Positions 23,906-25,266 of a DNA stretch of 64,000 nucleotides are shown here, piece after piece (the stretch's first letter is position 1; each line of letters opens with the position of its first letter). The notes under the pieces are model-generated. The model searched no databases. It was not told the origin of the DNA and saw only the letters and a list, made by a program, of their open reading frames with translations. The stretch is from the IMG/VR virus record IMGVR_UViG_2579779105_000001. One strand, given 5' to 3'. The position numbers were made by a program, and so were the translations under genes. The DNA is from a virus (taxonomy: Duplodnaviria > Heunggongvirae > Uroviricota > Caudoviricetes).

Positions 23906-25266
23906 GTCTGGTTAATTGGGAGGAGCACCGCGCCCGCTTTATAGCGTTGCGTGAAGAAAAAGGGATCACTGTAAAGGAATACTGTGAGGAGCATGGCCTT
24001 AGCTTCAATACAGCCAGAAAGCATCTCAATATGAAAAAAAATGAGGTGCGGTCGCAGGTAAAGACAACAAAAAAAAGCACCAAATCACCTGAAAAAAAAC
24101 GGGCAGGAAGAGCAACAAAAAAGCAGGAAGAGGGTGCAGGAAAAACAAAATTTACAGAAATTGACAATTCGCAGGGCGCAGGTTCTTTCCGAAGTATGCC
24201 GAGAAAGAAAACTTCGGATCATGAAAATAATTCAAATAATAACAATGAGATAAAAGAATCCGTCAGGAGATCATTACGCGAAAAAATGGCGAAAATGATC
24301 CCCGAAGAAGATAAAAGCGCCCCAAAAATTGAGGGATCTTCTGCAATGATCCCTGACGGTGCTGTGCAGCGTGCCACATTGCCAACTACGAATGTAGCTC
24401 GCGATATGATGAAGAACGGCGCAGAAGAACACCTGCGGTTAGCAATTCAAATGGCGCAAGAGCGCGCACTTCAGTATCAAAGCATTGTTGATCAGGAGGC
24501 CGAACGTCTACAGGCGGAAATAGACACCCTGGGCGATAAAGAGCCAGAAGGAATGCACCCTGGGCAGCGCCTTCTCGGTCTAATCAGTGACGCGGCCTAC
24601 TACATGAATGATTTTATCAGTAGGTTGGCAGCTATTTATCAGTCCGAACAAAAGCTGCGACAGGGGGATGAAAAGCTTCGTCAGAGCGCTCGCCAGCAAG
24701 CATTCAAAGAGGCTGAGGCCAGAGAAAAACTCGAATTAGCACGCCTACAGGCCGAACAGCGTGGCAAAGAGATTGAATATCGCATTGGCGCTGACGCACG
24801 CGCAGCCAGAGTTATCGCCGCCGCTATACGTATGCGTGAGCGCGAGGAACTGGATGATATCGGTGTTGCTGAATACATCGAGCGCCAGGGTGTCAGCGTC
24901 CCGGCTATCCTCGCGGCGCGCGCGGCGAAAGCTATCACTCTTCTCGAACCACCTGTTTCTGACGTCAATGATGTTGATGATGAACAGCTGGACAAAGAGG
25001 CAAGGGAGTTTGCAACGCTTCAGGCTAACCATCCGCAATGGCTGGCAGAGCGCCGGGCGGATGTGGCAACCATTGTTGAAGAATTGGGGTGCGGAGATTA
25101 CGACCGCAATGGCGAGCGTAAAGCTGGAGAATTCGAGGCCAACGACGAAGAGCTGGATATTGACCCTTCGGCAACGGCTGAAATTTACGGTGATTATGAT
25201 GCATCTGATGCAGGGTATGACGCCGGAGATGATGATATCGCGATAGAACCGCCGGAGGATGATTAA
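23902..25266 (+). CDS. pacA: terminase small subunit PacA-like
   Basis: 454 aa; N-terminal HTH-like region; coupled to pacB; GATC cluster inside the gene. Confidence 0.6.
   Translation: MSLVNWEEHRARFIALREEKGITVKEYCEEHGLSFNTARKHLNMKKNEVRSQVKTTKKSTKSPEKKRAGRATKKQEEGAGKTKFTEIDNSQGAGSFRSMPRKKTSDHENNSNNNNEIKESVRRSLREKMAKMIPEEDKSAPKIEGSSAMIPDGAVQRATLPTTNVARDMMKNGAEEHLRLAIQMAQERALQYQSIVDQEAERLQAEIDTLGDKEPEGMHPGQRLLGLISDAAYYMNDFISRLAAIYQSEQKLRQGDEKLRQSARQQAFKEAEAREKLELARLQAEQRGKEIEYRIGADARAARVIAAAIRMREREELDDIGVAEYIERQGVSVPAILAARAAKAITLLEPPVSDVNDVDDEQLDKEAREFATLQANHPQWLAERRADVATIVEELGCGDYDRNGERKAGEFEANDEELDIDPSATAEIYGDYDASDAGYDAGDDDIAIEPPEDD
24217..24493. other. candidate pac packaging site (GATC cluster)
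   Basis: Six GATC sites within about 280 bp (at 24217, 24269, 24297, 24335, 24348, 24490), several as (T/G)GATC(A/C); P1 pac lies in pacA and is Dam-regulated (recalled). Confidence 0.3.

Follow-up and report, generated by a model that had tools for sequence, protein, structure and literature searches.

The DNA analysed here is a 64,000-bp stretch (the window; IMG/VR virus record IMGVR_UViG_2579779105_000001) of a D6-type phage-plasmid, and we propose that a group of five conserved GATC sites inside its pacA gene serves as the packaging initiation (pac) site of the element, counterpart of the pac site of phage P1. The proposed pac core covers 135 bp (positions 24217-24351, no strand assigned; nt 316-450 of the 1365-nt pacA) in the part of the gene that encodes a linker, and from the comparative evidence set out below we give this assignment a probability of about 75%. 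The pacA open reading frame (ORF; 23902-25266, plus strand, 454 codons) showed 98.4% DNA identity to the pacA gene of Escherichia phage D6, which is distantly related to P1 and persists as a plasmid prophage (database record). Its product matched the phrog_1711 terminase family over its full length (E = 1.6e-184) and was 21% identical to P1 PacA (E = 8e-12), the two proteins being collinear end to end. From the identity to D6 pacA and the phrog_1711 match, the 454-aa PacA was annotated as small terminase subunit, and presumably it recognises pac. In Pfam and NCBIfam, neither PacA nor PacB matched any family above its curated cut-off, and a PDB search returned no relative of PacA.

GATC sites occur within pacA at positions 24217, 24269, 24297, 24335, 24348, and 24490; the six together span 277 bp, and the first five span 135 bp. 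The whole window contains 222 GATC (one per 288 bp), which gives an expectation of about 0.96 for 277 bp. A sequence-only reading of the window, which had put the cluster forward as a candidate Dam-regulated pac site, had counted six GATC in about 280 bp where about one would be expected by chance, and both the positions and the expectation were confirmed. Its statement that several sites lie in a TGATC(A/C) context was roughly right, with TGATCC twice and TGATCA once on the top strand, and TGATCC at 24217 and TGATCT at 24269 on the bottom strand. The excess over chance held locally, but it was not significant once the scan of the whole window was corrected for: when 222 GATC were placed uniformly, at least six fell in some 277-bp span in 37% of trials, and at least five in some 140-bp span in 23% of trials. 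The pacA cluster is also the densest GATC cluster of the whole 91-kb D6 genome, where an equally dense one arose in 30% of random placements. Raw density was rejected as evidence (P = 0.23-0.37 for the window and 0.30 for the D6 genome), and significance was therefore taken from synonymous resampling and from conservation across lineages. When the PacA protein was kept fixed and synonymous codons were resampled according to the codon usage of the element, 1.95 GATC were expected in pacA nt 310-455, and the probability of at least five in this segment was 0.010. The G+C content of the core is 36%, versus 49.5% for pacA.

Conservation was analysed in a set of 31 distinct D6-type pacA sequences from plasmids and viral contigs, with 69-99% identity to the window. 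In these genes the array sits in the region encoding a poorly conserved linker that follows the N-terminal helix-turn-helix of PacA. The five core sites (pacA nt 316, 368, 396, 434, and 447; spacings of 52, 28, 38, and 13 bp) were found at identical positions across the set, within the most variable stretch of the gene, where the proportion of invariant columns per 60-nt bin was 22-48% (nt 181-480) versus 40-83% in nt 481-1320. Eighteen of the 20 core GATC columns were invariant, versus 36.6% of linker columns, and the two exceptions were singletons in which one site each was lost; just 9.8% of the tetramers in the linker were invariant. The wobble positions within the core GATCs were all invariant (5/5, in 31/31 sequences), versus 30% of linker third positions (0.3^5 = 2.4e-3). 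At sites 2 and 4, Arg/Gly swaps preserved the xGA TCx pattern through rare codons, AGA representing 7% of the Arg codons and GGA 15% of the Gly codons of the element. An internal control was provided by the sixth GATC (TGATCA, 24490-24493, no strand assigned; pacA nt 589), located outside the core, whose Asp codon is in a situation like that of site 1 and which drifts synonymously. This site was absent in nine of the 31 sequences (GAT to GAC, a synonymous change, or other changes), including all lineages of 70-76% identity. Because of this loss, the conserved element is delimited as 24217-24351 and not as 24217-24493, and the sixth site probably lies outside the functional core. Judged from these alignments, the constraint on the five core sites acts on the DNA and not on the protein.

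Site 1 (ATGATCC, 24216-24222, minus strand; GATC at 24217-24220) lies in the Asp-His codons GAT CAT, and the synonymous GAC did not substitute GAT in any of the 31 sequences. Site 2 (AATGATCTC, 24267-24275, minus strand; GATC at 24269-24272; codons AGA TCA) reads AATGATCCC in the lineages of 70-76% identity; here Arg (AGA) changed to Gly (GGA) with retention of the GATC, and one singleton, L028, carries GACC. Site 3 (AATGATCCC, 24294-24302, plus strand; GATC at 24297-24300; codons ATG ATC CCC) keeps the Ile codon ATC in 30 of the 31 sequences, the singleton L043 having ACC. Site 4 (GAAGATCCC, 24333-24341, minus strand; GATC at 24335-24338; codons GGA TCT) reads AATGATCCC in lineage L005, with a change of Gly (GGA) to Arg (AGA), and its GATC columns were invariant in 31/31. 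Site 5 (AATGATCCC, 24345-24353, plus strand; GATC at 24348-24351; codons ATG ATC CCT) is a direct repeat of site 3, and its entire 9-mer was invariant in 31/31. When consistently oriented, the repeats give the asymmetric consensus (A)ATGATCC(C), in the strand order - - + - +. They are arranged around a dyad at position 24284, which is the midpoint both between sites 1 and 5 and between sites 2 and 3; the latter pair makes up an inverted repeat of 10 nt with 90% complementarity (24266-24275 / 24294-24303). An outlying GATC (AGTGATCCC, 23962-23970, minus strand) falls in the helix-turn-helix codons Gly-Ile-Thr. It was kept in all 31 D6-type sequences and in the equivalent codons of L064-67, was absent from L045 and L052, and is possibly an accessory site.

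A wider sample of the P1 supercluster was composed of 13 representatives of eight PacA lineages, taken from viral and genomic contigs (the scan of genomic contigs gave three loci only). All 13 representatives contained 5-9 GATC in pacA nt 140-480, and across the eight lineages the GATC density of this segment was 15-26 per kb versus 2-7 per kb in the rest of pacA. Despite this common array, the encoded linker was essentially unalignable between the lineages. The motif ATGATCC(C) was found in the D6 type, in L045/L010 (Enterobacter), and in L049, and TGATCA/G in P1, L070, L016, L064, and L052, so that the sole part of the repeats common to all clades was the Dam tetranucleotide GATC. The type of motif tracked the PacA helix-turn-helix, NTARKHL or STGRKKL being associated with ATGATCC and NTARRYL or NTARREL with TGATCA/G, a covariation that fits PacA reading the bases that flank the GATC. 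L045 (the type of Enterobacter plasmid p60214CZ_1) and L049 share the motif of the D6 type and also its order of orientations (- - / + + - +), and their helix-turn-helix sequences (NTARKHL in L045 and STGRKKL in L049) are similar to that of the D6 type. L045 has eight sites, including an extra left arm at nt 157-181 (12-bp spacing), which D6-type genes are without; the D6 type has the most compact array, with the fewest sites, among the sampled lineages. The most regular pac-like array encountered was that of L052 and its relatives (L051-L063, L068, and L069; uncultivated), with six TGATCA at an exact 12-bp period in pacA nt 154-214, in the codons of a tetrapeptide repeat (x-Asp-His-x), plus two further sites about 150 bp downstream.

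P1 pac occupies 161-162 bp within pacA (nt 195-356 of 1194; NC_005856, 90.7-90.9 kb; PMC10028697) and contains seven TGATCA/G hexamers in two arms of four and three, with an IHF site and the cuts between them (NC_005856; PMC10028697). Its GATCs are at pacA nt 195, 202, 214, and 229 in one arm and 325, 337, and 348 in the other, and the cuts at nt 276-285 (NC_005856). P1 and a relative of 69.5% identity were used as a positive control for the conservation test: six of the seven GATCs of the pac hexamers were kept, versus two of the seven other GATCs of pacA. Since the pac GATCs are selectively retained, the test recovers an experimentally defined pac site. Like P1 pac, the D6-type core is located in the 5' third of pacA, in the linker region after the helix-turn-helix and with pacB directly downstream, and it is composed of several Dam sites in a short repeated motif conserved as DNA. 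As in P1, the phage encodes a Dam-family Dmt, and a recombination site is found about 4 kb away on the pacB/c1 side (rox at 3.8 kb here, lox at 4.0 kb in P1). When the D6-type and P1 PacA proteins are aligned, residues 106-150, encoded by the D6 core, coincide in part with the position of the P1 right arm and continue beyond it on the downstream side; core and arm both fall between the N-terminal helix-turn-helix and the conserved PacA body. In contrast to P1, the array lies about 45 codons further downstream, the 21% identical PacA has a different helix-turn-helix, and instead of seven TGATCA/G hexamers there are five (A)ATGATCC(C) repeats in both orientations, TGATCA being present only at 24490, outside the core. 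In phages P22 (gene 3) and SPP1 (gene 1), pac also lies inside the small-terminase gene that encodes the recognising protein, and packaging is by the headful mechanism, as proposed here; their small terminases are unrelated in sequence to PacA. The pac sites of P22 and SPP1 consist of sequences other than Dam targets, and methylation gating is not known for them. The D6 core is most likely an orthologous member of the known P1-type class of pac sites made of Dam targets, with a clade-specific architecture.

The window also contains dmt (56578-58872, plus strand), which codes for a 764-aa fusion of a C5-cytosine methyltransferase (PF00145) and a Dam-family N6-adenine methyltransferase (PF02086). 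The Dam domain matched PF02086 with E = 1.9e-55 and the TIGR00571 dam model with 245.9 bits (cut-off, 114.85), and dmt is presumed to be the phage source of GATC methylation. The Dam half of the gene (nt 1465-2295) is 99% identical to the D6 gene D6_63, whereas its first 1464 nt showed no similarity to D6_64, the separate and shorter cytosine-methylase gene of D6. According to this comparison, the C5 module is swapped between the element of the window and D6, and the Dam part is kept. For P1, PMC12707154, which cites Sternberg and Coulby (1990), states that packaging needs Dam methylation of pac and that dmt is essential in dam- hosts.

For the D6-type element, the binding by PacA, the cleavage, the packaging direction, and the methylation dependence are inferred by homology with P1. 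Late in infection, the N-terminal helix-turn-helix of PacA would bind the five (A)ATGATCC(C) repeats within its own coding sequence. PacA would then recruit PacB, and the complex would cut the concatemer in or beside the array, after which headful packaging would proceed rightwards via pacB, c1, and rox. With rightward packaging and rox 3.8 kb away, the first headful would have rox in its terminally redundant part, and its DNA could then be circularised by Dre. Since the repeats are centred on the Dam target, binding and cutting may be gated by adenine methylation, carried out by the host Dam and the phage Dmt, as in P1, and such gating would cause just some of the pac copies of each concatemer to be cut. 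We consider methylation gating of the D6-type pac somewhat less probable than the pac assignment itself.

Several observations weigh against the assignment of the core as pac. GATC density alone, corrected for the scan, is not significant (P = 0.23-0.37), and the 31 D6-type sequences stem from no more than about four deep lineages, so that independence is overstated by the conservation statistics. The flanks of the repeats differ from those of the P1 hexamers, and the two arms of P1 pac (4+3 hexamers spaced 7-15 bp, with a cleavage spacer of about 90-95 bp) are missing: the D6-type sites form a single cluster, with 48 bp as its largest internal gap and the dyad about 24284 instead of two arms. 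Allowing up to one mismatch, a scan of nt 130-520 of the window pacA gave no match to the IHF consensus WATCAANNNNTTR. The same scan recovered the IHF site of P1, and among the other D6-type lineages scanned it found only a one-mismatch match in L009 (nt 325), which is not conserved; a weak or non-consensus IHF site in the D6-type core is possible. The closest non-D6 lineage, L045/L010 (55% aa identity), has the left arm that is missing from D6, and for this reason the D6 core may be partial, or the cut may be made outside it. The GenBank records of D6 annotate rox and cix and not pac. No description of a D6 pac site was found in the accessible literature, although the D6 genome paper may already discuss one.

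Three other explanations were weighed, each of which is weaker than the pac reading. The array could be the recognition site of PacA, and hence pac, with methylation having no regulatory role in the D6 clade and GATC being an inherited motif centre. The change of the motif flanks (ATGATCC versus TGATCA/G) alongside the helix-turn-helix speaks for this, as it indicates that recognition can evolve; yet the only part of the repeats that stayed invariant through eight lineages with different flanks is precisely the Dam target, the Dam half of dmt was retained at 99% identity to D6 despite the swapped C5 module, and P1 packaging requires methylation (PMC12707154). We regard a methylation-free pac as unlikely. 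Somewhat more unlikely still is that the cluster is a Dam- or SeqA-sensitive element other than pac, acting on the timing of pacA/pacB expression or on the sequestration of new DNA, with the true pac elsewhere. GATC clusters are classic targets of SeqA and of Dam regulation, pac is not annotated in the D6 records, and the overlap of lpa with the start of pacA, not seen in P1, implies that pacA is regulated differently. A promoter scan, however, detected no promoter-like site in or near the cluster (there were a few terminator-like matches on the minus strand), and the location coincides with the pac-bearing segment of the P1 gene. Moreover, the extended motif, the syntax fixed in three clades, and the covariation with the helix-turn-helix point to a sequence-specific protein, whereas SeqA reads bare GATC.

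The least probable explanation, and to our judgement a very improbable one, is that the cluster follows from the protein sequence of a low-complexity linker with Met-Ile-Pro, Gly-Ser, and Asp-His motifs, or arose by chance. The scan statistics do permit such a cluster in 23-37% of random placements, and the PacA sequence is GATC-prone, with the 1.95 sites expected in nt 310-455. What contradicts it is that the five wobble bases are invariant in 31/31 sequences while site 6 drifts synonymously, that Arg/Gly changes occurred with the GATC kept and with use of rare codons, and that analogous arrays are present in seven other lineages whose linker proteins are unalignable. Conservation and resampling have already largely refuted this explanation. 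The proposal of the sequence-only reading, a Dam-regulated pac site in this cluster, is thus supported as a candidate by the P1-like location, the five conserved sites, the arrays in eight lineages, and the presence of pacB, dmt, and rox-dre, and had to be amended in its borders and its repeat motif; the Dam-like methyltransferase that it ascribed to the element was verified by PF02086 and TIGR00571 at 56578-58872.

Returning to the pac reading, a more specific form of it would be that the D6 clade rebuilt its pac as a compact, IHF-less site, in which five asymmetric AATGATCCC repeats follow a fixed syntax of inverted orientations with a single point of symmetry, together with an altered PacA recognition helix (RKHL versus RRYL/RREL), leaving only the Dam tetranucleotide in common with P1. 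We advance this tentatively, at slightly less than even odds. If true, pac recognition throughout the supercluster would have the readout of methyl-adenine, and not that of the flanking bases, as its ancestral and indispensable core. A defined 135-bp pac core would enable D6-based phagemid and transduction tools modelled on those of P1, and would allow prediction of the DNA transduced by D6-like elements. These phage-plasmids are common in E. coli, Salmonella, and Shigella, and D6-type pacA was found on 121 PLSDB plasmids. With the same Dam core but different flanks and helix, the D6-type site would also be a natural comparison for the co-evolution of a small terminase and its methylation-gated site, and the known picture of P1-type packaging is unchanged by it.

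The gene order lpa, pacA, pacB, c1, rox, dre is the same in the window and in the D6 records. pacB (25266-26774, plus strand), which bears this name in the D6 records, codes for a 502-aa large terminase subunit (phrog_2, E = 2.6e-40), and it is followed by c1 (26803-27840, minus strand), a rox-like recombination site (28054-28085, no strand assigned; 3.8 kb downstream of the pac core), and the recombinase gene dre (28238-29266). Both 14-nt arms of the rox-like site are identical to those of D6 rox, and its 4-nt spacer is GGGG versus TGGC in D6, a change that could render the site of the window recombinationally incompatible with D6 rox. Upstream of pacA, lpa (23513-23905) runs 4 nt into pacA, over its start codon (ATGA, 23902-23905). 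In P1, lpa and pacA are separated by an 85-bp spacer that bears the late promoter LPpac (NC_005856 annotation). Because of this overlap, expression of pacA must be arranged differently in D6-type elements and in P1.

Contig ends were considered as a proxy for virion DNA ends and rejected, since a break inside the cluster was found in only one of the 28 D6-type contigs of IMG/VR, which is anecdotal, and since assembly breaks are a poor proxy when plasmid-derived reads span the ends. The break in question is in IMG isolate genome 2537562191, where contig L048 ends at pacA nt 329 and contig L037 starts at nt 320, with a 10-nt overlap that corresponds to window positions 24221-24230, immediately to the right of GATC site 1. 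This single case could reflect a physical end at pac or an assembly problem in the AT-rich spacer.

Other observations were made on the window. A DarB-like ORF (12187-17778) codes for 1863 aa with SNF2, helicase, and N6-methylase domains; the darB homologue of D6 has 6837 nt (about 2278 aa), and so the ORF of the window is shorter or its true start lies further upstream than called. A stretch of 4.17 kb (34554-38726) with a normal G+C content (46.5%) contains no GATC, versus about 14 expected, and encodes phage proteins of the families phrog_21459, phrog_60, phrog_2638, phrog_1258, and phrog_926, with functions unassigned. In D6, the GATC-free gap is elsewhere, at the invertible tail-fibre segment 32239-35960. 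A full-length gene for glutaminyl-tRNA synthetase was identified at 58921-60582 (minus strand; Pfam tRNA-synt_1c, E = 6e-130), with D6_62 as its D6 counterpart. The 5' end of this gene and the region upstream of it (60018-60623) constitute the other GATC-dense spot of the window, with nine GATC in about 600 bp in heterogeneous sequence contexts.

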